Notes: a model not told the origin generated them from the sequence alone. A DNA stretch of 40,794 nucleotides from an uncultured Candidatus Saccharibacteria bacterium (GCA_964478465.1 CAYZIG010000001.1:1-40794), one strand, 5' to 3'; counted from the stretch's first letter, positions 14,993 through 31,491 are shown. Program-made: numbers and translations.

Positions 14993-15967
14993 CTAGTATT
15001 TTTTTCTTAAACTTATATTATCTATAGTACCGGTCCAAGTCGTACTTGATAAAATCATAGTTATACCATCTGCGAACTCGTCCGCTGTGAAATAAATTAA
15101 ATGTGATGCTAAACCTAATTTATTTAAATTCAATTTGTAACTTGTTGCAGTATTTGCGTAAATACTTAACCATTCGGGAACACCACTACCCATTGTTGCG
15201 GTTGTATTTGTTTCAAAATATAAAGCATATACCTCCCCAGTTGTAATAGTTTCTAAATATGTCGGGCTTAGATATATTTGACTTCCTAAACCTTCACCAA
15301 TAGGGTCTACCTGTGATATTTTTTCAGAAACAAGTGTAAATCCACTTATACTCCAGTTTGGAGTCCCAGATAAATTTCTATCAACTAAGTTTGTGATCAT
15401 TTCATCGCCAAATAATCCAAATTTTATTTTATCGCCGTTATTGTCATATTCTGCATTTATTTCTAATATAACACTCGCATTTTCTCCGTTAGTTCCCTTT
15501 TTTTCAAACTTTTTATCTATACAACATCTTAGAATAACAATGTCGTAAGATGTGTTATTTGCAGGAAGTTCAGAAGGATGAAGTCTTAAAATAAATTCAT
15601 TTAAAATATTTCCTACGACATTTCTAGCTGTTGAAATATCCCCTATTCCTGTTTCGTCATTTTCTACTGTTATACCTTCAAAATTTTTTATACCTGTTAC
15701 CCATTCATCAAGTTTTGCTATGGTAAAATCACTTAATTCTAGTTTTAATTTAGTTTCATTTATATCATGCAAAAATTTTATTGGTTCATTTCCACTTTCA
15801 AGGATTGTAACGCCTTTTAATTTTTCCGACCAATTAAATTCTGGTACTGATTTCTGAGAACCTAACAATGTCCACGCCTCATGTGTAAGAGGCACAACAC
15901 TATTATTATAAGGTGCAATATAAGGTTTAAATGTTCCTACATATTTACTTTTCATTATCCACCCCAC
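14993..15967 (-). CDS. Tail-tube paralog 3 with ~140-aa C-terminal extension
   Basis: Shares PYIAPY, LGSQKSVPEFNWSEK, LSDFTIAKLDEWVTGIKNFEG, ILRLHPSE and DKKFEKKGTNGE with the two upstream ORFs. It lies immediately upstream of the chaperones. Confidence 0.55.
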   Translation of the reverse strand: MGWIMKSKYVGTFKPYIAPYNNSVVPLTHEAWTLLGSQKSVPEFNWSEKLKGVTILESGNEPIKFLHDINETKLKLELSDFTIAKLDEWVTGIKNFEGITVENDETGIGDISTARNVVGNILNEFILRLHPSELPANNTSYDIVILRCCIDKKFEKKGTNGENASVILEINAEYDNNGDKIKFGLFGDEMITNLVDRNLSGTPNWSISGFTLVSEKISQVDPIGEGLGSQIYLSPTYLETITTGEVYALYFETNTTATMGSGVPEWLSIYANTATSYKLNLNKLGLASHLIYFTADEFADGITMILSSTTWTGTIDNISLRKKY

Positions 15968-16545
15968 CCAATAATTAATTTTTGGTCTAAACTGTCAGAC
16001 ATTCCTAAAACTTCAAATTCTAAAACCGCTTGTTCTCCTATAATGCCTTTTTTATCAAATTTTTTATTTATTACTGCGTGAGTAATTATAATATCTTGGT
16101 CGTATAATGCCCCACGTTCGACAGGGTGCAATCTTATTATACACTCCGCTATATTTATCCCGATTTTATTTGTAATCGTTCCTATGGTATTTTCATCAAC
16201 ATTATAGCCCTGTAAGTTGCATATTTCAGCCAGTTCATCGAATGTAGGAGCATTTTGAAACTGACCCATCGCGTCAAAGCTTACAGCGAGCCTAAATCCT
16301 TGTAATTTTGTTAAATCTAAGTCTACAAGAAATAATTTTGCCATGAGAGGATGTTCCGAACATACAGCCCCATCAATTCCATCTTCTATCGTTTTAACTT
16401 CTGCGTTTTTTTCTGAATAATTAAATTCAACGCCTGTTTTCTGATTTCCTAAAGCTACCCATAGGTCATGGTCTGTAGGTATAAATCCATCGTCGTATAA
16501 AGCTATGTAAAGTTGAAAAATACTTGGATATAATGGTGTTCCCAT
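15955..16545 (-). CDS. Tail-tube paralog 2
   Basis: LGNQKTGVEFNYSEK, IIRLHPVE and NKKFDKKGIIGEQA align with paralogs 1 and 3. Confidence 0.55.
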   Translation of the reverse strand: MGTPLYPSIFQLYIALYDDGFIPTDHDLWVALGNQKTGVEFNYSEKNAEVKTIEDGIDGAVCSEHPLMAKLFLVDLDLTKLQGFRLAVSFDAMGQFQNAPTFDELAEICNLQGYNVDENTIGTITNKIGINIAECIIRLHPVERGALYDQDIIITHAVINKKFDKKGIIGEQAVLEFEVLGMSDSLDQKLIIGWGG

Positions 16546-16557
16546 TTGTTACCTCCC

Positions 16558-17100
16558 TTAAGCGGTAACCGCTCCAAATACGACTTTTCTCGGAGTTGCT
16601 GAATCATTCCACATTGCCATACAATCCCAAACAACAGCGGCTTGGTCTCCGTATGTTCCTTTCTTTTCAAAAGACTTATTCGCTACTATTCTACATAAGA
16701 TTATATCGTTTGAATAGTCTGTTCCCATTTCTGCCGGGTGAAGTCTCAATATGTACTCGCTTGCAATCTGTCCAACTTTATTTGTAACTGTCAAAACACT
16801 TGCAGCGTATGCAGCTCCATCAAAATTTGATATTCCTGCCGACCATTCATCCAACTTTGCTACTGTTATATCCGATAATGTTAATTTGCAAGTTGCGGAT
16901 TGACTTTCCATTATTGCTTTCACTGCTTCATTACCACTTTCCACCGTTTTTACACCTGCATACTTTTCAGAATAGTTAAACTCTGCAACCGCTTTTTGTG
17001 AACCTAAAGCCGTCCATCCGCTTAGATTTGCACATGTAGGTATCACTCCATCAGTTGTGTAAGGTGCAATGTACGGTATAAAATTACCTAACATTAACAT
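16558..17100 (-). CDS. Tail-tube paralog 1 (major tail protein candidate)
   Basis: PYIAPY, LGSQKAVAEFNYSEK, LSDITVAKLDEWSAGISNFDG, ILRLHPAE and NKSFEKKGTYGDQA. It is the first of three tandem homologs. Confidence 0.55.
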   Translation of the reverse strand: MLMLGNFIPYIAPYTTDGVIPTCANLSGWTALGSQKAVAEFNYSEKYAGVKTVESGNEAVKAIMESQSATCKLTLSDITVAKLDEWSAGISNFDGAAYAASVLTVTNKVGQIASEYILRLHPAEMGTDYSNDIILCRIVANKSFEKKGTYGDQAAVVWDCMAMWNDSATPRKVVFGAVTA

Positions 17101-21200: not shown

Positions 21201-21683
21201 TTATTTAGGATTATATTCTACATCTTTTATTATAACTTTTTCATTATAAAAACCCTCGTGTCTTGCCATCGCTTTACACAATTTTAAGTAATCAACCTCA
21301 AATTTTGGTACAAATTTACGCCCTAAACCTGAGTATTCCTCGATAGCTTTAATATAATCCTCTACATTATTTTCAATTGATGGAGCGTATTTGTTTACTA
21401 TTTCTTCTATTGTTTTGTCTTTATAATGTTTTGAGTTACAAAGTAATTTTTTCATGCAGTTGAAGCCTTCTTCTTCGGTTGCAAAGACTGCGAAACGATT
21501 ATCTTTACCCGCTCTTCCGATTGCTCCAAAAGTTTTTGTGAAATTTCCGTATTCGATATTACCCGGATTATTATTCCTTTTTGCACAAATTCCCTTAACC
21601 GTTATAGCCTTCTTTTCTTCATCATCAAAAAAAATAGTTGTCATACTGCCTTTTTCTCCAAAATGTTCTGCTCTATTCCACAT
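21201..21683 (-). CDS. Candidate endolysin / muralytic protein (NNPGNI-motif family)
   Basis: Carries RNNNPGNIEYG...FAVFATEEEGF...TIEEIVNKYAP. I only vaguely recall this motif family from phage lytic/structural annotations. It lies directly downstream of an XhlA-like membrane protein. Confidence 0.4.
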   Translation of the reverse strand: MWNRAEHFGEKGSMTTIFFDDEEKKAITVKGICAKRNNNPGNIEYGNFTKTFGAIGRAGKDNRFAVFATEEEGFNCMKKLLCNSKHYKDKTIEEIVNKYAPSIENNVEDYIKAIEEYSGLGRKFVPKFEVDYLKLCKAMARHEGFYNEKVIIKDVEYNPK

Positions 21684-21687
21684 TTTA

Positions 21688-21987
21688 TCACTTCCCTTCT
21701 AAAACAGTTTTGATTGCTAATGTTGTTAATGCTCCTACAATCAACAATATTACTGTTTTTGTTATTTCTTTATTGAGCTTTGCAGGTTCTTTGTTCTTTT
21801 CATCAATCTCTTTTTCAATCTTTTTCAATATCTCGAACATGTCATTCATTTTTTGAGAACTTAAGAGAAATTGTTCTCTTAAGTCCCCAAATTTTTCTTT
21901 GAAGTTCTTGAACTCTGTTTCGAGTTCTGAAATTTTATTTTTCAGAAATTCAATTGTTTCTATTTTTTTACATTCGTGTTCTTCCAT
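21688..21987 (-). CDS. XhlA-like lysis-associated membrane protein
   Basis: 99 aa with an N-terminal coiled coil and a single C-terminal TM helix (TVILLIVGALTTLAIKTVL). This is the architecture of PBSX XhlA-type proteins. Confidence 0.5.
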   Translation of the reverse strand: MEEHECKKIETIEFLKNKISELETEFKNFKEKFGDLREQFLLSSQKMNDMFEILKKIEKEIDEKNKEPAKLNKEITKTVILLIVGALTTLAIKTVLEGK

Positions 21988-22607
21988 TATCTATATGTTA
22001 TCTCTACATGATATACGTGGTTATCTATTGCGTTTGTTCCGTCATAATTTCCAACATAGATTTTATTTTCACCTTGATACATAAAACAAGTTAATATTTT
22101 AGAGTTATTTTCATTAAGCCCTATTCCCGCAGAACTTCGAACAGGATTAATTGGAGGTGTTATAGTTAAACTACCCGTTGCGGTTCCTTTATCTGTTATG
22201 GTTATAACTATAGAAAGGTTAATAATATTTCCTACTTTTGTATAATATCCTGTCGCAGAATAAGAAGTTATAGTCCCTGTTCCTGCTGTAACTATAGGAT
22301 TATATGATGTTTCCTCATAATCGTCAAATACATTTATTCCTACATCATCAGATTGACTTGCAGGAAAAGATATTCCCGAACACGTTAAAATACTTGTTGT
22401 TCCTAGTTTTGGAACTTTTAAAGCTTCTCCACTTGTTGTTACTCCGCTTGTCGTTGTTCCAAAACCTAACGCCTCAAAATTTCCTTGTAGGTACGGTCTT
22501 GCCCCTGATACCGTATCTGTTCCGCTGTCAAATCCTGCCGTTCCTACCACTGCAAAACTCATTGTTGATATTAACACTAATATCAATCCTAACATTAATT
22601 TTTTCAT
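21987..22607 (-). CDS. Secreted protein of unknown function
   Basis: The N-terminal signal-peptide-like MKKLMLGLILVLISTMSFAVVG is followed by Gly/Thr/Ser-rich beta-type sequence. Confidence 0.5.
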   Translation of the reverse strand: MKKLMLGLILVLISTMSFAVVGTAGFDSGTDTVSGARPYLQGNFEALGFGTTTSGVTTSGEALKVPKLGTTSILTCSGISFPASQSDDVGINVFDDYEETSYNPIVTAGTGTITSYSATGYYTKVGNIINLSIVITITDKGTATGSLTITPPINPVRSSAGIGLNENNSKILTCFMYQGENKIYVGNYDGTNAIDNHVYHVEITYR

Positions 22608-22620
22608 TTCTGCACTCTCC

Positions 22621-23109
22621 CTATTTTAATTTTATTGAAATAATTGTGCTCAAGTTTGTTGGTGTGAACACAAAGTTTAAATCTATATCACTGCAAATAT
22701 TTTTATTGTAAAACAGTAAAGGCATTACCAAAATATTGTTATTAATTAGAATATTTTTTGTATAATATTCATTAGTTCCAAAGTATATATAATTATCATA
22801 TCCCGAAAACGCCCCTATTCCATAACTTAAATTATCACTTATTTTATTTGTATAAACTATTCCTAAACTGTCTTTTGAATTACTATTATTCATTGTCATT
22901 ATAGTTATATTTTCAAACTTTAATCCTAAAATATAATTGTTGTTATTAACTAATGTATTATTTCCATAGTGTCTTGTGTCGATACCTATAAGCAATTCCG
23001 TTGCATTGCTTTCAATTGCAAAGACGGTGCTTAATATAACTATTATAATCCATGTCATTAACCTCATAATACACCGCCTTTTATTTTTATATGTCGTCCA
23101 TTGATCCAA
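22621..23109 (-). CDS. Small signal-peptide protein with beta-barrel-like alternating pattern (probable start ATG 23067)
   Basis: MRLMTWIIIVILSTVFAIESNA is followed by amphipathic strands (YILGLKFENITIMTM, SLGIVYTNKIS, LSYGIGAFSGY, DIDLNFVFTP). The ATG at 23067 follows AAAGGCGGTG and removes the overlap with the previous ORF. Confidence 0.35.
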   Translation of the reverse strand: MDQWTTYKNKRRCIMRLMTWIIIVILSTVFAIESNATELLIGIDTRHYGNNTLVNNNNYILGLKFENITIMTMNNSNSKDSLGIVYTNKISDNLSYGIGAFSGYDNYIYFGTNEYYTKNILINNNILVMPLLFYNKNICSDIDLNFVFTPTNLSTIISIKLK

Positions 23110-23425
23110 TATATTTTTCTTGTGCTTTCAAAAGTTTATATACTTCATCCATAAAAACTGATTCCACAAAAACTTTTTTATTTTCATTAGTTTTTATTTC
23201 AAAAGTTTTATCATTTAAATAAAATATATTTTCAAAACATTCAGTATTAAAGTCTTTTCTTTCAAGTTCGATTGTCTGAATGTCTAACGGATATTCGCCA
23301 TTTAATCTACTTTCTTTGTTTGCATAACTTTCTACTGTCATTCTAAGATTATTTTCATTTTCTGAAACATAAAAGAATGAAATTTTGTGATAGTTCGTAT
23401 TTTCTAGTTGTTTTATTATTGCCAT
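23087..23425 (-). CDS. Hypothetical protein downstream of the fibre genes
   Basis: 112-aa ORF with no recognisable motif. Its position is compatible with a fibre chaperone. Confidence 0.4.
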   Translation of the reverse strand: MAIIKQLENTNYHKISFFYVSENENNLRMTVESYANKESRLNGEYPLDIQTIELERKDFNTECFENIFYLNDKTFEIKTNENKKVFVESVFMDEVYKLLKAQEKYIGSMDDI

Positions 23426-23434
23426 TTTTACTCC

Positions 23435-24814
23435 TTATTTATAATAAAAAATATATATTCTATTTGCGGTATATCCGCTTCTATCTGCAACAGTTACGGC
23501 TGTTAAATTTGTACTGTCAATTTGCCATGTAACTTGGTTTGCGGCGGTTGTACTATCAAGCCCGAACGGTACAAATTTAGTCCCGTCGTAAGCTGAACCG
23601 TTCATTCTTACAATTTTTGTTCTGTCAAAATTACTTATACCGTGTGCAACATTTTTTGTCGTGTTGTTTGGTATTGCCCCAAAGTTTATAACTTTACAAA
23701 ACACTCTATTACCATCAATATACTCATTCGTTGCAATTTCTGAACCTATTATGTAATTTACTCCATTAACTTCTGAATCCCAGTCTATAGCCCCTGTTGA
23801 AGTTACTCCGATACAAGTAAATTTACCTTTCATTGAAGGGGTAACTGTTTGAACCAACTCCCCTCCTGAACTATTAACAGTTATAACCGCATTAGTAGTA
23901 TTATTTTTTATTTCCCACATTTGACCTGTTGAAAGTGTTGAAGTTACTGGCAAAAGTATAGTTTGAGTTGTTGTTCCTGTAAAAAATTGGTATCTGTTTG
24001 ATATACTTGTAAGTGTAGTTATAGTCGCTGAACATGTTGTAGTCGTATATCCGTTTGTATTTCTTGAAAATATAGTTCCTCCAACTCTCAAGTCTTTTGC
24101 TATTCCTGCTCCTCCACTTGCAATTATAGAACCATCCGAAATTGTCAAACTCTGTGTTGTGGATGTAGCGGTCAAACTTGGTGAACTTATACCGCCATTC
24201 GCTTTTATTCTTAATTGTTCCGTTATCGTTAAACCATTTACATTTTTAAAAACTAAGTCACTTTTATAGTCGTTAGCTCCTGCACTTATTACGTTTGTAC
24301 CTATTGAGTTAGCAAGTAAATGTGTTCCTGCGTTATCTCTAACATTAAATTCTATTGTATGTTCATCTCCACCGCCCGAAGCATAAAAATTATCAAGTGA
24401 TAAAGCTGTATAAGTTCCAGAAGAGGCAGTATTTATTATAGTTTGTTTACCGCCTAAATATAAATCTTTCTTTATGCCTACTCCACCATCAACTATTAAT
24501 GCCCCTGTAGCAATGCTTATAGACTGTGTAGTAGATAATGTCGATATATCCCCTAAACTTGTTATAACTCCTGTAACTCCTACGCCTGCATTGAGTATTA
24601 ATGCCGAACCCGTCAGACTTAACGCCCCCAAGTATCCTTGCCCTATATAACTTGTATTAGTCGCTATCTGTTGAAGCACATCAGCGGCGTTTACCGCTGA
24701 ACCTGTCGAACTAGTCCATTGATAAAACGCCCCTTTTGTCGTTGTAGTGTTTACCGTTCCCGAAAAACTAAGTATTGAAAGTAACGTAAAAATTAATAAT
24801 AGTGTTTTTTTCAT
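23435..24814 (-). CDS. Fibre-like protein, short paralog, with signal-peptide-like N-terminus
   Basis: MKKTLLLIFTLLSILSFSG, then SAVNAADVLQQIATNTSYI and repeated GALIVDGGVGIKKDLYLGG / ASGGAGIAKDLRVGG motifs. These are shared with the 875-aa protein. Confidence 0.55.
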   Translation of the reverse strand: MKKTLLLIFTLLSILSFSGTVNTTTTKGAFYQWTSSTGSAVNAADVLQQIATNTSYIGQGYLGALSLTGSALILNAGVGVTGVITSLGDISTLSTTQSISIATGALIVDGGVGIKKDLYLGGKQTIINTASSGTYTALSLDNFYASGGGDEHTIEFNVRDNAGTHLLANSIGTNVISAGANDYKSDLVFKNVNGLTITEQLRIKANGGISSPSLTATSTTQSLTISDGSIIASGGAGIAKDLRVGGTIFSRNTNGYTTTTCSATITTLTSISNRYQFFTGTTTQTILLPVTSTLSTGQMWEIKNNTTNAVITVNSSGGELVQTVTPSMKGKFTCIGVTSTGAIDWDSEVNGVNYIIGSEIATNEYIDGNRVFCKVINFGAIPNNTTKNVAHGISNFDRTKIVRMNGSAYDGTKFVPFGLDSTTAANQVTWQIDSTNLTAVTVADRSGYTANRIYIFYYK

Positions 24815-24823
24815 TTGTCCCCC

Positions 24824-27451
24824 TTATATTCGATTAACACTTAAATTAAAATGTCTGATAGTGACATCTGTCGTATCTGTTTGATTAATTATACCTAGCC
24901 ATAATCTATCACCTACAGTTAAGGATAATATACCCCCAAAAACCAAACTATCATATTGATTTGCTGTTGTAAAATATTTAGATGCAACTATATTTGTCTG
25001 TTCTGTAGTATTTTTAAAAACTCCTACTTTGAATTGTGTTGTATTAGTATCGCAATAAAGCGTCAAAGTTCCATTAACTTTATAAGTTCCTGCTCCACTT
25101 GAACCTACCTCAAGATACGCCCCTCGATAATAACTTCCTGTTCTTGTCGCAACAAAAGTCTTTGATATATAAAATGCTGTTGGACTTACTACTGTAACTG
25201 TATAAGTTCCATCATAATTTGTCGTAGAATGAATTGTTATTGCATCCCCAGTTGTCAAATTATGCCCTGCCGTGACAGTAAACAATGATGTACCTGCAAC
25301 CACAGCCCCATAGGTCGAAACGCTCGCTATAGAGCCTGTTACGCCTTGTTTGAATGTAAAATCTATACAACTACCCGTAGTTATTCCTGAACCCGTTACC
25401 GCCTGATACTCATTAACTACTTTTATATCAATTATATTTGCATTTTCAAAAGCATACATTTCACCATAATGTGTATTATATAATCCTACTTCTTTTCTTC
25501 CTTCTGACACGTTAGTGAAATACAGTGAATCCCCAGAAAATTCTATTGCCCCTACCTCTGAATCAGTGTTAAGTGTACCATCTATAAGTTTGAGTGGTGC
25601 GGTATCGGCGGTTGAAGTTCCCGCAGGCGGTCTTAATTTTGATATTGTACTAACTGCAGTTAAAGTCCCTGCCGTATTAATATTCTTTGCTATACCCACT
25701 CCACCGCTCACTATAAGCGAACCGTTTGTATGTGCTGTAGATTGTAATGAACTTAGAACCGTTATTCCTCCGCTAGTAGTATCCGCACTATTACCTCTTA
25801 ATATTAATCTTTCTGTTGTTGCAGTGCCTCCGATTATTGTCTGTCCTCCTGCAACTCCTGAGTTATCTATTTTTTCACTTGAAAGCTCTTCGATTGCAGA
25901 TTGTAAGTTTGTGCTTGATATAGTCCCGAACGTAGTAGACGAAACATTTGTGGCAGTTATTGAAAAGTTATTATTTGTTACTGAAAAATTACTTCTTCTT
26001 AAATCTACTGTTTCTCTTAACGCAGTATATTTAACATTGCTTGAATAAGTTGATTTATATTGAAAAATAAGTTTATAAAGTGGTCTTATTTCTTCATCTT
26101 TCAACGTTGGATATACATTTTGTAAATCAATCCAATCCGAAGCCTGTGCATCTAGTAAAGTTGAAAAAGTTTCTATTGCGGAACAGGTTTTTAATGCTTC
26201 TCCTGCTCTTTGGTCCTGTAAAGAATATATATAATACACAAAATAATTATTGTCAGGTACATCAACCGCCATTCCAGTAGTTAAAATATATTGTGGAATA
26301 TTTGTTCCACTGTCAAATAAAAATGGAAATCTAGTAGCGGGATACATTTCTAAAATACCATTTACATCATTACCGCGTATCTTCATAACAGCCGAATTTG
26401 TGACGGTTATACCTGATGCGGTTATGTATCCTAAATCTTGTGTAAATAATGCACCTGACGTACTATTGGTCACAGTATAACTTAAATTATCGTCCATATT
26501 TTTACCAGTTTTTAATGATATTGCTGTATTCAATCCGCTTGTGTCAGGTGTTCCATTAGTAACATTAGAAATTAAGTCAAACCCACTCAACCATATTGTA
26601 CCGTATTTGTGCTTCCAAGCATGGTCTGATGAACTCATTGTATTCATGTGCGTTTCTAAACTTTCAACAACTACCATTGCCGAACCTGTTAAGTTAGCAT
26701 TTACATATATACGATAAATAGGAGCTAATAAAGAAAAATCACTCCATGCCGTCTGAGTAGTTACAGGTGTTCCAGTATTATCTATATAAAAATACCATAC
26801 TCCGCTTGATGAAGTATACGCGGGAAAATTACATGGACTTGTTATAGTATGCCGTTCTACTACTCCACTACCATCAGTGAATATATCAAACGAACTTCCC
26901 GTAACTGCTGTAACTGTCAAAACTTTAGTATCGTAATCAATCGAAACGTTTACAGGACACTTTTCACACAATCCCACAAAAGCGGTTTGTTTTAAATTCA
27001 ATAAATTTTGTAAATCTTCGCCATTTAAATTTATTGTATCACTATGAATAGATGTTGAAGTTATTGCTGAGGCTGTAAGATTTACTGTTTGACTGTTGAT
27101 TGATGTGAAGCTCGTTACGACTTGTTCATTAATTATTTGCGTTACCGTCAAGGTGTCGGCTGTTAAGTTACCTTGAACTTCAAAATCACCCGCTATTATC
27201 CCCGAACCTGTAACGCCTACATCACCATTAACGATTAAAGCCCCGTTCGTTGCACTTATGTTACCTACCGAACTTATGTACTGTGTATTATTCTGTATTG
27301 CTGTCAAAACATCAGCAGAATTTACTAAATTACCGCTAGAACCAATCCATGTTGACATTGAATCTCTGCTTAATACCTGATTAGTTGTTCCGCCTGCAAA
27401 TATTACTATTACACTTAGTATTAATATAATGCTTAATGCTAGTTTTTTCAT
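24824..27451 (-). CDS. Fibre-like protein, long paralog, with signal-peptide-like N-terminus and C1q/TNF-like C-terminal head
   Basis: MKKLALSIILILSVIVIFAGG, NLVNSADVLTAIQNNTQYI, GALIVNGDVGVTG and SGGVGIAKNINTAGT. The C-terminus KVGVFKNTTEQ...LSLTVGDRLWLGIINQTD...IRHFNLSV resembles a C1q-type jelly roll. Confidence 0.6.
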   Translation of the reverse strand: MKKLALSIILILSVIVIFAGGTTNQVLSRDSMSTWIGSSGNLVNSADVLTAIQNNTQYISSVGNISATNGALIVNGDVGVTGSGIIAGDFEVQGNLTADTLTVTQIINEQVVTSFTSINSQTVNLTASAITSTSIHSDTINLNGEDLQNLLNLKQTAFVGLCEKCPVNVSIDYDTKVLTVTAVTGSSFDIFTDGSGVVERHTITSPCNFPAYTSSSGVWYFYIDNTGTPVTTQTAWSDFSLLAPIYRIYVNANLTGSAMVVVESLETHMNTMSSSDHAWKHKYGTIWLSGFDLISNVTNGTPDTSGLNTAISLKTGKNMDDNLSYTVTNSTSGALFTQDLGYITASGITVTNSAVMKIRGNDVNGILEMYPATRFPFLFDSGTNIPQYILTTGMAVDVPDNNYFVYYIYSLQDQRAGEALKTCSAIETFSTLLDAQASDWIDLQNVYPTLKDEEIRPLYKLIFQYKSTYSSNVKYTALRETVDLRRSNFSVTNNNFSITATNVSSTTFGTISSTNLQSAIEELSSEKIDNSGVAGGQTIIGGTATTERLILRGNSADTTSGGITVLSSLQSTAHTNGSLIVSGGVGIAKNINTAGTLTAVSTISKLRPPAGTSTADTAPLKLIDGTLNTDSEVGAIEFSGDSLYFTNVSEGRKEVGLYNTHYGEMYAFENANIIDIKVVNEYQAVTGSGITTGSCIDFTFKQGVTGSIASVSTYGAVVAGTSLFTVTAGHNLTTGDAITIHSTTNYDGTYTVTVVSPTAFYISKTFVATRTGSYYRGAYLEVGSSGAGTYKVNGTLTLYCDTNTTQFKVGVFKNTTEQTNIVASKYFTTANQYDSLVFGGILSLTVGDRLWLGIINQTDTTDVTIRHFNLSVNRI

Positions 27452-28317
27452 TATTCCTCCTTTTTAATATTTAACATAAAATCTATTGTTTCTTTTCTTA
27501 TGTCGTCAAGCTCGATATTATTTTTTAAATTTACGTTTATTTCTTCGAATATATCCCCATCCTGCAATACTTTTTTCAGAATGTACGGCGGACTTGTAGA
27601 ATTACTCATCATGAACAATGAAATTAAATCTTTTAGCCAGTCTGAAATACCGCCTTTTTTAACTGAGTATTTATATTTATAATTCCCTGTACCTACTGAA
27701 ATTATTCTTATTTTTTCGTCAGGGAAAAGTTTTTTTGCTTCGATATATGCAGACAAACATAAATCGTTCTGGTCTACTCCTCCATCTACATATCTATTGA
27801 AAAAAATTTCTTTTGGTTCAAAGAAAGTTGGAGCTGAACAACTTGCCTCTACCGCATCCGATAAAGCGGCGTAATTTGTAATCTCTGATTTATAACTTTT
27901 CCAGTATTGTGGAATATCTTCTGTGATATTATACGCTGTTATCATCAACTTTTTTTCGATACAACTTATAGGGATATTCCCGAGTATTTTTCTAAGACTT
28001 TCTCTTAATTGTTCACTTTGATATTTCGGGTTTATCAACCCATTTAGGCTTCTGATATTATACCAAAAATCTTTCTTGAATATTTTCCATATCTCTTCAA
28101 GATAAACTTTCAATATATCCTCTGTCTTCATACTAATTGAATATGCTCCCGCTATAATTGCCCCTGTAGAAACGCCACAAAGCAAGTCAGGAACGATTTT
28201 TTCTTTCTTCTCTAACTCTTTCATCAAGACAAGGCTTATAATCCCTCTAACGCCACCACCCGAAAAACACAGAACTGTTTTCAAATACTCCACCGCCTTT
28301 ATCAAATGATTTTTCAA
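27451..28317 (-). CDS. Patatin-like phospholipase (probable start TTG 28284)
   Basis: FSGGGVRG (oxyanion loop), GVSTGAI (GxSxG nucleophile) and YVDGGV (catalytic Asp) appear in canonical order. No ATG precedes the Gly loop, and the TTG at 28284 follows AAGGCGGTGGAGTAT. The stop overlaps the ATG of the fibre gene. Confidence 0.85.
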   Translation of the reverse strand: MKNHLIKAVEYLKTVLCFSGGGVRGIISLVLMKELEKKEKIVPDLLCGVSTGAIIAGAYSISMKTEDILKVYLEEIWKIFKKDFWYNIRSLNGLINPKYQSEQLRESLRKILGNIPISCIEKKLMITAYNITEDIPQYWKSYKSEITNYAALSDAVEASCSAPTFFEPKEIFFNRYVDGGVDQNDLCLSAYIEAKKLFPDEKIRIISVGTGNYKYKYSVKKGGISDWLKDLISLFMMSNSTSPPYILKKVLQDGDIFEEINVNLKNNIELDDIRKETIDFMLNIKKEE

Positions 28318-28522
28318 ATGAAAGAGTTATGAAAACCCCTTTCGTAGTATTGACATAATCTTTTTTAATAAGTTTATAACCTTCTTTTTCATATTTTTTC
28401 TCATATTCTGAAATATCCATTAATGTTTGAAAGTTATTCCGTTCTCTGAATAGTTCAACTTTTTTTATATCAGAAAATGAAAAAGTAAAAATTAATAGAT
28501 ATATTAATAATATTAATTTCAT
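28247..28522 (-). CDS. Small signal-peptide protein
   Basis: MKLILLIYLLIFTFSFSD leader. The 3' end overlaps the patatin frame by 38-71 nt. Confidence 0.45.
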   Translation of the reverse strand: MKLILLIYLLIFTFSFSDIKKVELFRERNNFQTLMDISEYEKKYEKEGYKLIKKDYVNTTKGVFITLSFEKSFDKGGGVFENSSVFFGWWR

Positions 28523-28758
28523 TATACTAATCCTACTACTATATGATGCTTTGAGCTATTCGGGACTATTATTTTGAAAGCCGAAAAAGTTGTTTGAGTT
28601 GTTATATCTCCAGATAGTCCTGCTTCAATGACTTTATCTATTCCGTTTACTGAAATAGTTATATCTTCGTTGCCTGTGTTTGTCACTTCAATATAATTTC
28701 CTGTATCTTCGTATAACGCCGTGACTAGCTTATTATTATATACTTTCTTCGTTAGCAT
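28522..28758 (-). CDS. Hypothetical small beta-rich protein
   Basis: 78-aa ORF tightly coupled to its neighbours (a 1-nt gap on one side, a 1-nt overlap on the other). Confidence 0.4.
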   Translation of the reverse strand: MLTKKVYNNKLVTALYEDTGNYIEVTNTGNEDITISVNGIDKVIEAGLSGDITTQTTFSAFKIIVPNSSKHHIVVGLV

Positions 28759-28759
28759 T

Positions 28760-29320
28760 CTATTCTCCTTTTACAATATATTTTTGTACCATCTTCGTGT
28801 ATTTCTTGACCTCATAAGATGAAAATCCTAAGAAACGCCTCTCAGGTATTGAGACTTTATAAGATTTTACTTTATGTTCGGTTTGAAAATTAGCTTTGTT
28901 TTGTTTTACAATTTTCATAGTTCCGTTTTTTGAAATCTTCCAATTAATTTTAGTTTTTCTAGCCGGATGTAATATTTCAGCTCCAAAATTATGGACAGCC
29001 GCAATCTTTACATCTTCCGAATCATACACCCCGACCGCAACCGAGTTTTTGTAACTTTTAGCGGTTATTTTCTGTAAAATGTGTGTCGTTGTATCGTTAA
29101 GAGGCTTAGAACTTCCACGCCTTCGCCTCTTAATTGTACTTTCCGCTAATCTTTCCCATTGTCCTCCGTCTGGTGCTTCTGTATTTCTAAATCTAAGTTG
29201 TGTTTGACTGAGTGCTTTTGGTTTTATTTCTTCAAGAATAGGTTTTAAGGTTCTACTCCTTTTTATCACTTCTTTCATGTGAAGTGTCAATCCTGCTGTG
29301 TCAAGTGATATTGTAATCAT
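28760..29320 (-). CDS. Mu G-like virion morphogenesis protein
   Basis: PDGGQWERLAESTIKRRRRGSSKPLNDTTTHILQKI...VAVGVYDSEDVKIAAVHNFGA parallels the Mu gpG pattern (W..LAEST.K.R ... AA.H.FG). Confidence 0.75.
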   Translation of the reverse strand: MITISLDTAGLTLHMKEVIKRSRTLKPILEEIKPKALSQTQLRFRNTEAPDGGQWERLAESTIKRRRRGSSKPLNDTTTHILQKITAKSYKNSVAVGVYDSEDVKIAAVHNFGAEILHPARKTKINWKISKNGTMKIVKQNKANFQTEHKVKSYKVSIPERRFLGFSSYEVKKYTKMVQKYIVKGE

Positions 29321-31491
29321 TAACTCACCAACTTTCTAAGTTCTTTTACCTCTTCATCTTTCTTATTAACCAGTTTTTCCATGCTCTTACTCATTCCAAT
29401 AGCGGGATTATAACCAAAACCACTGTCTTTCAACACTTTCAAGTCCTCTTCTGGTATTCTGTCAGAGTTAGCAACCTTCAACCCTTCCTCTTCTAAATCT
29501 TCTTTGTCGAGTGCAATTACTATTGACCTTTCATTATAATGATTTGGCGGATATATCTTCGACCATATCGGGTCATCTTGTTTATAGACTTTACCGTTTA
29601 AGAAAAAGCATATTTCTGTAGTACGTCCATCTAAAATTGCACTATAAAGCCAGTAAGGCTCATTCTTGCTCTTCATCTGTTCGTTATATCTACCTGCCGA
29701 ATACGCAGATACAAGATTAGTTCTGAATACTGTTTCAAGATATGCTTTGCTTGCAATTTTTTCAGGTTCCATAACATTTAACCATTCTTTAAATGTCGAA
29801 CCGTTATCAATTGCATCTTTCAAGTTTTTATATATCCTCTTTGTCATCTCTAAGTCAGTTGCTTTTTTAACCCAAAAATATTGTGACCTTATTTCATCCT
29901 CTACATCTTCAATATCTGCAAACAAAACAGGGTCTTTATCAACGAAAAACTTTATAGCTTCCTCAAACTTCATTTTGAAAGGGTCTATTTTCTCCGCAAA
30001 AGCCTCTATAACTATTTTGGATACACTGTCCATACCTTTTAACCTTGCAATCGTAAAAGCTTCGTCAAAGGTCGTTTCTGTCCATTCCATGCCAATTTTT
30101 TCTATATCTTCTATAGACTTAATTTTAGAAATTTGCTTGATATAGTTTTTCGATACTTCGTCCGCTATGTTCGGGAGTACCTCAAGCATACTGTCAGTAA
30201 ATTCTTTCTCCTGTTTTCTTGCTTTTTCAAGTTTTAATTGTATTCTACTCTTTTTTTTTTCTGCAAATTCAATTCTTTCAAAGTTTTGAATAGCGGGTTG
30301 TGATACTTCATAGCTTAATTGTTCGATAGGTATTCCAGTATCCTGCGATATATACTCCAAACCTACTTTTATTCCAGCTGTTTTCAATTTAACATATTTG
30401 TCAACTATAGCAGATTTTGTCTGTTCTTCTTTTTGTCTGTCTACTTCGCTATCTAACGACAAGTAATACTTTTTACCATCGAACCCTTTTAACTCACCTT
30501 GCCAATTAATAACATTCTGAAAACTGTCTCTAATATATTTTGCGTACCCTTCAATCATGTTTGTTGATACTTCGTTAAGAGTAACCGCTTGAGCATTTGA
30601 ACCGTTCGCCTGTCCTACTGCGTTTGATACATTAGAACCTAGCAAATATACGTTGATCGCATCCACTGCCTGATTAATAATTGAAGCGTGTACTTCTGTT
30701 TTGAATTGGTCCAGCGTAATAAATTGAACTTGGCTGTTAAATTCGTTTACAGGCATCCCTACGACGTTTCCGCCTCTCATCATATCTTTTACATCAGATG
30801 CCAAAGCCGCCGCCTCTGTTCCTGTCAAAGTTGGGTCATAAGCAAAGTAGGTTATTATGTCACCGTAATTTTGTACAATGTATCCTTCTTTGTTTAATGC
30901 AAGTTCTTTTAATTTCCAGCATTTGTAAAGCGGTTCTAATATACTTCGTCCCATCTGCATATCTTCCGACCAATCGTTTATTGTTACTAAGAACTTATAA
31001 GGTGTTTCTGAAAAATATAAATATTCGCCATTATCGGCTATAAAGTACCAATCTTTTTTATTTCCATCATAGTTGAACCAATAATTAGGCTTTGATTTTA
31101 TTTTTTCAACCCATAGTTCATTATCGTATAATATTTCTTGTGCTTGATACCCTGTGAATTTTGACCATGCCATTTTCTCGATAATACTCGACATGTTCAA
31201 TAAAGCATATTTCCCCTCTAACTCTTTCGCCCCTTCTTTATCTTCATCTCTAACTGCTTTAATATGCCATTCTCTACCTGATAACTGTAGAAAAATTTTA
31301 TTGAATGCAGATAAAATAGTATCATCCCTTAACATTTTTTCTAGCTCGGTTGGTGTCATGTAAGAGAATGAAAAGTTTGTCATTATTCTGTTAGCTGTTC
31401 TGATTGCTAACTCTTGTGTTAATAATTGTCTTTGCGGTTGTATTGGCTTCGGCGGTGGTATCGCTTTCTTGAAAAAGTCTAAAATTGCCAT
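29320..31491 (-). CDS. Portal protein fused to Mu F-like / SPP1 gp7-like minor head domain
   Basis: 723 aa, directly after the large terminase. The C-terminal GRTTEICFFLNGKVYKQDDPIWSKIYPPNHYNERSIV matches the Mu F family signature (C..lnG ... PP.H.nCR). A coiled linker with an A10 tract lies at codon ~411. Confidence 0.7.
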   Translation of the reverse strand: MAILDFFKKAIPPPKPIQPQRQLLTQELAIRTANRIMTNFSFSYMTPTELEKMLRDDTILSAFNKIFLQLSGREWHIKAVRDEDKEGAKELEGKYALLNMSSIIEKMAWSKFTGYQAQEILYDNELWVEKIKSKPNYWFNYDGNKKDWYFIADNGEYLYFSETPYKFLVTINDWSEDMQMGRSILEPLYKCWKLKELALNKEGYIVQNYGDIITYFAYDPTLTGTEAAALASDVKDMMRGGNVVGMPVNEFNSQVQFITLDQFKTEVHASIINQAVDAINVYLLGSNVSNAVGQANGSNAQAVTLNEVSTNMIEGYAKYIRDSFQNVINWQGELKGFDGKKYYLSLDSEVDRQKEEQTKSAIVDKYVKLKTAGIKVGLEYISQDTGIPIEQLSYEVSQPAIQNFERIEFAEKKKSRIQLKLEKARKQEKEFTDSMLEVLPNIADEVSKNYIKQISKIKSIEDIEKIGMEWTETTFDEAFTIARLKGMDSVSKIVIEAFAEKIDPFKMKFEEAIKFFVDKDPVLFADIEDVEDEIRSQYFWVKKATDLEMTKRIYKNLKDAIDNGSTFKEWLNVMEPEKIASKAYLETVFRTNLVSAYSAGRYNEQMKSKNEPYWLYSAILDGRTTEICFFLNGKVYKQDDPIWSKIYPPNHYNERSIVIALDKEDLEEEGLKVANSDRIPEEDLKVLKDSGFGYNPAIGMSKSMEKLVNKKDEEVKELRKLVS

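Follow-up and report, generated by a model that had tools for sequence, protein, structure and literature searches.

Phage lysis of diderm hosts is explained by the action of holin, endolysin, and spanin. In mycobacteriophages, a third lysis enzyme, LysB, stands beside holin and endolysin and breaches the lipid outer layer; it is a cutinase-like alpha/beta hydrolase that cleaves the mycolyl-arabinogalactan ester, and its gene adjoins that of LysA in the lysis cassette. Phage-borne patatins have already been catalogued, as PHROG 25573, in Wolbachia phage WO, and among Burkholderia prophage morons. For WO, a putative "patatin-based lytic cassette" has been proposed (Bordenstein & Bordenstein 2022, PMC9203015) and the patatin has been suggested to serve as an entry/exit factor (Kent et al. 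2011, PMC3173496), and the Burkholderia prophage patatins have been listed as virulence-type morons (PMC2920897). Here we describe a gene for a patatin-like phospholipase, P0001, on the minus strand of the contig CAYZIG010000001.1 (40,794 bp; the whole stretch analyzed is referred to below as the window), which derives from a temperate tailed phage. The gene had been pointed out in a prediction made from the sequence alone (the original prediction), which took a patatin to be an unusual phage gene. In view of the precedents just listed (PHROG 25573, the WO cassette [PMC9203015], and the Burkholderia morons [PMC2920897]), that judgment could not be maintained, and P0001 is a new, divergent, compact member of the already known phage patatins. 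We propose, with a probability of about 45%, that it acts as a late-expressed, cytoplasmic, lipid-directed lysis accessory.

The gene and its motifs are located as follows (positions counted from the first letter of the window).

27451-28284, minus strand: patatin-like phospholipase coding sequence, 277 amino acids (aa) (P0001), with TTG start at 28284-28282 and TAA stop at 27453-27451
28243-28260, minus strand: GGGVRG oxyanion/phosphate-binding loop, residues 9-14
28162-28176, minus strand: GVSTG nucleophile elbow, residues 37-41, with the Ser39 codon at 28170-28168
27778-27786, minus strand: DGG motif, residues 167-169, with the catalytic Asp167

P0001 is a complete patatin with intact motifs and the patatin alpha/beta fold, and the match is far beyond chance. 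With the Pfam profile PF01734 (cutoff, 27.7 bits) the protein scored 103.6 bits (E = 2e-29) over positions 1 to 184 of the 191 in the profile, and a PHROG match was obtained with phrog_25573, of unknown function (E = 5e-31). The motifs followed each other in the canonical order, GGGVRG, GVSTG, and DGG, and residues G9-G11, G14, G37, S39, G41, and D167 were invariant across 42 homologs. An AlphaFold (AF2) model built with these homologs reached a predicted local distance difference test (pLDDT) value of 94.6 and a predicted template modeling (TM) score (pTM) of 0.92, and Foldseek comparison of the model rendered TM scores of 0.85 to 0.86 with AbCapV, 0.85 with a second lipase activated by cyclic GMP-AMP (cGAMP), 0.79 with CapE, and 0.79 to 0.80 with potato patatin. 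The complete patatin with its conserved catalytic Ser and Asp, as read originally from the motifs, was thus corroborated by profile, alignment, and structural model. No signal peptide was found in the protein, and the gene product is predicted to be a cytoplasmic, catalytically competent patatin-type acyl hydrolase with a Ser39/Asp167 dyad and a GGGVRG anion hole.

The patatin frame is open from 28317 down to the TAA at 27453-27451, and no ATG occurs in frame from the upstream stop as far as the glycine loop; TTG 28317, TTG 28305, GTG 28293, and TTG 28284 are the possible starts. The last of these, favored from the beginning, is preceded by GGTGGAG, and translation from it begins MKTVLCFSGGGVRG. 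It is supported because P0002, a relative with 56% identity encoded on a JGI contig (L001), has an ATG at exactly the equivalent codon, lying in an ATGA overlap with the upstream signal-peptide open reading frame (ORF); the public gene call for the contig (P0001, 277 aa) also starts at TTG 28284. The gene is coupled on both sides, as had been claimed. Its stop is linked to the ATG of an 875-aa ORF through TAATG (27453-27449), with one shared base (A), and a 91-aa ORF (28522-28247) overlaps its start by 38 nucleotides. A frameshift fusion of the 91-aa ORF with the patatin was considered and rejected, since L001 shows a clean ATGA stop/start at the same place. No terminator-like site was found flanking the patatin gene, and in scans for promoters and terminators shuffled sequence gave counts at least as high.

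The nearest curated and solved family of P0001 is CapV, an effector of the cyclic oligonucleotide-based antiphage signaling system (CBASS), in agreement with the link to CBASS-type patatins drawn in the original prediction. The PADLOC model of the CBASS phospholipase effector (PDLC00758) gave 181 bits (E = 1e-53), the NCBIfam model CBASS_lipase (NF041079) gave 152.1 bits, under its equivalog cutoff of 200, and the DS2_1 anti-phage phospholipase model gave 76 bits; PADLOC calls a CBASS system only when a cyclase accompanies the effector. When solved proteins were scored with a profile of the four closest sequences, CapV-type proteins reached 97 to 114 bits, CapE 81, potato patatin 59, and PlpD 44. 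P0001 shares with CapV (AbCapV, PDB 8zr9/9jeh; VcCapV) the single-domain patatin fold, the GGGxRG, GxSxG, and DGG motifs, the dimer-interface residues W216 (= W255) and P152 (= P175), and the lack of a signal peptide, so that it would presumably attack the inner membrane from the cytoplasm. However, AbCapV is only 24% identical to P0001, CapV proteins are 333 to 364 aa long compared to 277 aa for P0001, and they are found in defense islands, whereas the P0001 gene lies in a phage late operon. For its part, potato patatin/PNPLA (PDB 1oxw, 4pk9) resembles P0001 in its fold and its Ser-Asp catalytic dyad, but its sequence relation with the subfamily profile is weaker than that of CapV, and it is a eukaryotic storage and defense protein without a phage context.

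A set of 231 loci encoding relatives was gathered from viral, genome, and metagenome contigs, and their genes were called in Python. The commonest neighbor cluster was a cGAS/DncV-like nucleotidyltransferase (CD-NTase) directly downstream (35 loci, Pfam confirmed). A local hidden Markov model (HMM) built from those 35 neighbors detected the cyclase in 40 of the 231 loci; the window and the 19 loci closest to P0001 gave no match. Likewise, CD-NTase, Cap2, and Cap3 were not found on the 40.8-kb contig, nor was any SMODS/DncV-like family found among its other ORFs. About 13 related loci (L145, L054, L157, and some 10 others) lie within type I restriction-modification operons, with HsdR/HsdM/HsdS neighbors; these operons are a second defense-island context for patatin homologs, distinct from CBASS.

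The absence of a cyclase is accompanied by a shorter protein. The distance from GGGxRG to the C terminus is 269 aa in P0001 and 263 to 269 aa for P0001 and its two closest relatives together, compared to 287 to 323 aa in 32 of 32 cyclase-adjacent CapVs; P0001 is about 30 residues shorter. The cGAMP contacts and autoinhibitory latch residues of AbCapV were taken from PMC12480259 and located by sequence alignment. F147, K149, F275, and R279 align with Y127, K129, Y234, and K238 of P0001, being kept or conservatively replaced, in a site that forms between protomers. D159 and the N299/E300 latch fall in four-residue insertions lacking in the phage subfamily, E207 and L272 are replaced by S178 and S231, and contacts 328 to 332 fall past the C terminus of P0001. 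By this alignment P0001 would be a compact CapV relative that lost, or never had, a cyclase partner and about 30 residues of regulatory loops and C terminus. Because the latch, the contact loops, and the C-terminal contacts are missing, we infer that it is probably not cGAMP gated. A role as an anti-CBASS sponge was also considered and rejected, the catalytic residues being intact and invariant. Judged from identities, the subfamily is about equally distant (28 to 34%) from lysis-cassette patatins, WO patatins, and genuine CapVs.

The WO patatin resembles P0001 in being a phage-encoded orphan of similar size with intact motifs. It lies directly after a small holin-like protein with an N-terminal transmembrane (TM) segment and a coiled coil, beside tail genes (L003, L009, and L012), and the window shows a comparable arrangement, with the 91-aa, N-terminally hydrophobic ORF directly before the patatin in the late operon. 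However, the WO patatin is only 28 to 32% identical to P0001, and WO, a P2-like myovirus, lacks an endolysin and infects an endosymbiont poor in peptidoglycan, whereas the window phage carries an endolysin-like gene (21201-21683), Mu-like head genes, and a siphovirus-type tail, and has fibre-like genes after the patatin. The partners differ as well, since the 91-aa protein is probably secreted and cleaved, in contrast to the membrane-anchored coiled-coil protein of WO. The likeness to mycobacteriophage LysB is one of concept only, that of a lysis enzyme cleaving a lipid ester; LysB has an unrelated fold, another substrate, and a LysA-adjacent position.

The late-operon position originally assigned to the gene was upheld, the patatin lying in a late block downstream of the terminase, portal, and gpG genes. 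The block and its genes are listed below.

21201-28758, minus strand: accessory block of 7.6 kb between gpG and scaffold, from the 78-aa gene through the endolysin-like gene
28760-29320, minus strand: Mu gpG-like virion morphogenesis/Neck1 protein (Phage_tail_S), upstream boundary of the block
28522-28758, minus strand: 78-aa ORF, first gene of the block
28247-28522, minus strand: 91-aa ORF with an N-terminal Sec-type signal peptide, MKLILLIYLLIFTFSFS followed by D; 77-aa counterpart in L001
24824-27451, minus strand: 875-aa fibre/receptor-binding-protein-like protein with a Sec-type signal peptide, its ATG sharing a base with the patatin stop
23435-24814, minus strand: 459-aa protein with a signal peptide, its N-terminal part paralogous to the 875-aa protein
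Between the 459-aa and 162-aa genes: 112-aa ORF
22621-23109, minus strand: 162-aa signal-peptide protein matching PHROG 3600, annotated as PagP (E = 1e-10)
21987-22607, minus strand: 206-aa signal-peptide protein
21688-21987, minus strand: 99-aa coiled-coil protein with one TM segment, at its C terminus, and weak matches to XhlA/hemolysin (phrog_1193) and DUF2951
21201-21683, minus strand: 160-aa endolysin-like protein without a signal, last gene of the block (phrog_873, E = 3.5e-22)

The region from 28758 to 21201 was considered an accessory block because in L249 gpG adjoins the scaffold directly. In that locus, with a large terminase subunit (TerL) of 77% identity and an unchanged order of the portal-MuF, gpG, scaffold, HDPD, and capsid genes, there is no block between gpG and the scaffold gene, and the two genes overlap; in the window, the scaffold, decoration, and capsid genes come after the endolysin-like gene. 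The start of the block is common to L001 (gpG, 53% identity; 78-aa protein, 59%; patatin, 56%; N-terminal half of the fibre, 65%), and the base composition of the block is no different from that of the rest of the contig. The central domain of the 875-aa protein (about 380 aa) is common to modular proteins with Mtd_N, Collar, Sipho_Gp37, or Laminin_G_3, and its homolog P0118 in L251 comes after the tape measure and Dit genes and before a muramidase gene. Because the L251 fibre homolog precedes the muramidase, the block is the counterpart of the usual fibre-plus-lysis module, here relocated among the head genes and headed by the 78-aa, 91-aa, and patatin genes.

A scan of every coding-strand ORF placed all six signal-peptide/TM proteins of the phage within this block. 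The same scan revealed neither a lipobox lipoprotein, and hence no o-spanin candidate, nor a multi-TM holin, in accordance with the earlier failure to recognize spanins; the 99-aa XhlA-like protein is the only holin-like candidate of the phage. The 160-aa endolysin-like protein also matched PDB 7q47, "Endolysin" (E = 4e-4), and the Gp29 N terminus (E = 2e-6). The patatin itself has no spanin features, neither a lipobox Cys nor a type II membrane/coiled-coil architecture, and it could only act like a spanin; it is not a spanin itself. In the 91-aa protein, a hydrophobic segment at the N terminus, apparently a cleavable signal peptide (cleavage between SFS and D), is followed by a charged C-terminal part.

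We favor a role as lysis accessory because the patatin shares its block with the only membrane-targeted proteins of the phage and with the endolysin-like gene, and because related phage patatins adjoin endolysins or holin-like genes elsewhere. In the mechanism that we propose, the patatin would be made only late in infection, on a late polycistronic message, and would hydrolyze, from the cytoplasmic side, acyl esters in the phospholipids of the inner membrane. The membrane would thereby be permeabilized, allowing the signal-less endolysin-like protein to reach the wall, and after the wall breach the patatin may attack the phospholipid leaflet of an outer membrane. It would cover in this way functions for which the phage has no recognizable multi-TM holin or spanins, and the 91-aa secreted or membrane protein, whose gene overlaps the patatin start, may be its functional partner. 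Of the three hypotheses offered originally, namely, a lysis accessory, a virion-borne lipase, and an exclusion toxin, the first gained the most support, with the correction that the enzyme would supplement rather than replace peptidoglycan lysis, an endolysin-like gene being present.

Patatins with intact catalytic motifs, about 28 to 34% identical, were found inside the lysis cassettes of at least four other lineages; for L031, L068/69, L007, L030, L210, and WO the identity is 28 to 32%. In L031 (8794-11526) the order is lipoprotein, TM/coiled-coil protein, multi-TM protein, patatin, and GH19 endolysin (phrog_181, 4.5e-50), and in L030 and L210 a GH19 gene lies at most 0.65 kb from the patatin. 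In L068/69 (L068, 7997-10837) an SLT endolysin with a hydrophobic N terminus overlaps the patatin start, and in L007 (8990-10900) a CHAP endolysin is accompanied by a TM/coiled-coil protein and the patatin. L165, with 38% identity and likewise intact motifs, shows a Sipho_Gp37 tail protein, a TM/coiled-coil protein, and the patatin, and in L080/L081/L083 a small lipoprotein is followed by the patatin and fibre-like genes, an arrangement that resembles that of the window. In L031, L068, and L007 the cassette is otherwise canonical, and the patatin lies next to or among its holin-like, spanin-like, and endolysin genes. Among GenBank phages, patatin matches were limited to phage WO. No description of a patatin inside an otherwise canonical lysis cassette was found outside WO, and a full-text literature search on patatin with endolysin and holin rendered only the WO papers in the sense of phage lysis.

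Two counts are in agreement with these cases. A small TM or signal-peptide ORF ending at the patatin start was present in 10 of 61 viral orphan loci versus 4 of 144 others (CBASS, 1/33; genome, 1/55; metagenome, 2/56). Endolysin-seed matches lay no more than 2.5 kb from the patatin in 8 viral loci (368 kb searched) and at a greater distance in 2 loci (828 kb searched), corresponding to a density about 5- to 9-fold higher near the patatin in viral loci.

However, several points weigh against a lysis role. The enrichment counts are low, with related loci among those counted, and they depend on crude gene calls and hydrophobicity windows. The neighbors (three genes on either side, PHROG survey) of the 22 nearest phage-like loci were mixed (methyltransferase, terminase, helicase loader, and others), with no clear enrichment; a lysis context is for this reason a subset and not the rule, its signal emerging only from the ORF ending at the patatin start and from the endolysin seeds. 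In the window, 5.75 kb and two fibre-like genes separate the patatin from the endolysin-like gene, and the immediate partners of the patatin are the 91-aa protein, probably cleaved and secreted, and the fibre gene, rather than a holin or endolysin. If the phospholipase were constitutively active in the cytoplasm, the membrane might be damaged too early, and no mechanism timing the enzyme was identified. The alignment of Y127, K129, Y234, and K238 with cGAMP contacts may leave room, formally, for nucleotide control. The diderm envelope of the host is itself only presumed, and we know of no experimental precedent among phage patatins, WO included.

A broader proposal, which we consider doubtful, is that compact cyclase-less CapV-like patatins form a recurrent, unrecognized class of phage lysis proteins. 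Their target would be the lipid of the membrane and not peptidoglycan, and they would be used next to endolysins or holin-like proteins by phages of several unrelated lineages (L007, L030/L031, L068/69, L210, L165, WO, and the window phage). In the window phage, such a patatin would take the place of the canonical holin and/or spanins that are missing.

The nature of the 875-aa protein affects how the neighboring genes are to be read. Its designation as a fibre gene in the original prediction agreed with its homology and with its synteny elsewhere, which are fibre/receptor-binding-protein-like, and was less in keeping with its N terminus. Both the 875-aa and the 459-aa proteins start with canonical Sec-type signal peptides, MKKLALSIILILSVIVIFAGG and MKKTLLLIFTLLSILSFSG, conserved in L001/L002; central-domain homologs of the 875-aa protein in other phages have ordinary N termini. 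A Sec signal peptide is odd for a virion fibre, and the two proteins may be displayed at the surface rather than being virion parts. L001 and L002 carry an identical patatin (P0002) and differ directly downstream, the identity of the fibre N terminus to the window (27200-27451) being 96% in L002 and 65% in L001; this comparison places a recombination junction exactly at the patatin/fibre gene boundary.

Among the other explanations, it is unlikely, in our estimation, that the patatin is a virion- or fibre-associated lipase, delivered with the fibre-like proteins to degrade envelope lipid at adsorption or DNA delivery. The TAATG overlap with the 875-aa gene would fit such an enzyme, as would the patatin-then-fibre order, which is also seen in L001, the lipoprotein, patatin, and fibre-like genes of L080/L081, and the position of the L165 patatin after a Sipho_Gp37 tail protein. 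The L001/L002 breakpoint suggests separate but adjacent modules, and an entry option has also been raised for WO (PMC3173496). However, overlapping stops and starts are the norm across the operon regardless of function, no fusion of the patatin family to a structural domain was seen, and P0001 has no signal peptide or other obvious signal for virion incorporation. CapV-type enzymes work from the cytoplasmic face, and the adjacent fibre-like proteins, with their Sec signal peptides, may not be virion parts. To our knowledge, no tailed phage has a virion phospholipase.

To a similar degree, we find it improbable that the patatin is a prophage defense or exclusion toxin, that is, an orphan CapV-type effector that would kill the cell and protect the lysogen population when triggered by cyclic nucleotides from a host CBASS or by another infection cue. 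The phage is temperate, with an integrase, the best curated matches are to anti-phage models (PADLOC, 181 bits; NCBIfam, 152 bits; DS2_1, 76 bits), related loci occur with CD-NTase or in type I restriction-modification operons in the numbers given above, and the four mapped cGAMP-contact positions are conservatively kept. On the other hand, the window contains no cyclase or other CBASS gene, the NCBIfam score is below the equivalog cutoff (152 versus 200), and P0001, which each of the 32 cyclase-linked CapVs exceeds in length, has neither the latch nor two contact loops. Because the gene is embedded in the late operon, overlapping both neighbors, without a recognizable promoter or terminator of its own, expression from a repressed prophage is unlikely. 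Defense morons are usually regulated independently and located at the ends of a prophage or between its modules.

Least probable of all is envelope remodeling or conversion, in which the lipid composition of the membrane or surface would be changed by the lipase and the five secreted block proteins in late infection or in the lysogen, for surface display, receptor masking, or virulence: it would agree with the richness of the block in Sec-signal proteins, with the PagP annotation of the phrog_3600 match of the 162-aa protein, and with the listing of Burkholderia prophage patatins as virulence-type morons (PMC2920897), but the patatin has no export signal, the PagP-like match has no Pfam or PDB sequence support, the late-operon position speaks against lysogenic conversion, and any lipid product would be hypothetical. 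If the PagP match were true, the block would hold a second lipid-active or outer-membrane protein beside the patatin, a hint of a diderm host.

The remaining genes of the phage, nearly all of them on the minus strand, include those for integrase, RecT/YqaJ, a single-stranded DNA-binding protein, a methylase, and the small and large terminase subunits; a portal/Mu-F fusion, the Mu gpG-like morphogenesis protein, a scaffold, an HDPD-type decoration protein, and the capsid protein in the head module; and three tube-like paralogs, tail chaperone-like ORFs, the tape measure, and two distal tail proteins in the tail module. No sheath gene was seen among them, and the siphovirus label originally given to the phage is reasonable for this reason. 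The features of interest outside the block are as follows.

29320-31491, minus strand: Mu-type portal and Mu-F head morphogenesis domain in one ORF of 723 aa
34253-35080, minus strand: tyrosine integrase, in the middle of the contig, directly upstream of the small ORFs located before the terminase
16558-17100, 15955-16545, and 14993-15967, minus strand: consecutive tube-like ORFs of 180, 196, and 324 aa
13170-14297, minus strand: 375-aa ORF between the tail chaperone-like ORFs and the tape measure

The portal/Mu-F fusion is also present in L249 (708 aa; L249, 1526-3652), and L250 has two separate genes. The integrase lies mid-contig and no terminal direct repeat was found on the contig. Instead of an excised prophage, with its integrase at one end, the contig probably represents a phage genome that is permuted or incompletely bounded. 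The tail tube-like gene is triplicated, the third copy having a C-terminal extension, and the three paralogs, which occupy the tail tube gene position, share the N-terminal motif ..YIAPY...W..LG.QK...EFN.SEK.. A Spherulin4 match (PF12138, E = 4e-34), assigned by inspection of the sequence alone, likely belongs to the 375-aa ORF, which may encode a glycoside-hydrolase-like enzyme within the tail module.

The close relatives P0002 to P0004 came only from a protein database, on contigs of 3 kb or less, and scans of viral, genome, and metagenome contigs with subfamily profiles revealed no relative closer than about 36%. A DNA similarity search with 27000-29400 against GenBank phages gave no match, nor did a tblastn search with the major capsid protein, and the best TerL matches were Bacteroidota phages (38 to 45%). 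Shine-Dalgarno motifs are present upstream of 30 of the 51 phage genes, and their use at such a frequency speaks against a Bacteroidota host. A Fusobacteriota-like diderm host is only a guess.

Mycobacteriophage LysB is the only established lysis component that hydrolyzes lipid; for WO, such a component has been no more than proposed. The locus described here and its relatives provide several tractable cases in ordinary tailed phages, in which an intact patatin lies in or with a lysis/fibre module and canonical holin/spanin genes are not recognizable; their value is that of a testable lead and not of a demonstrated new mechanism, and patatins beside endolysins in several phage lineages are a more interesting lead than a single gene. 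Patatin enzymes could also serve as membrane-active lysis tools. The commonest CBASS effector fold circulates in phages without a cyclase, which bears on the origin of defense effectors and on whether a stripped-down CapV would be active constitutively. If the proposed lysis class is true, phages and CBASS would use the same membrane-destroying enzyme for opposite ends.

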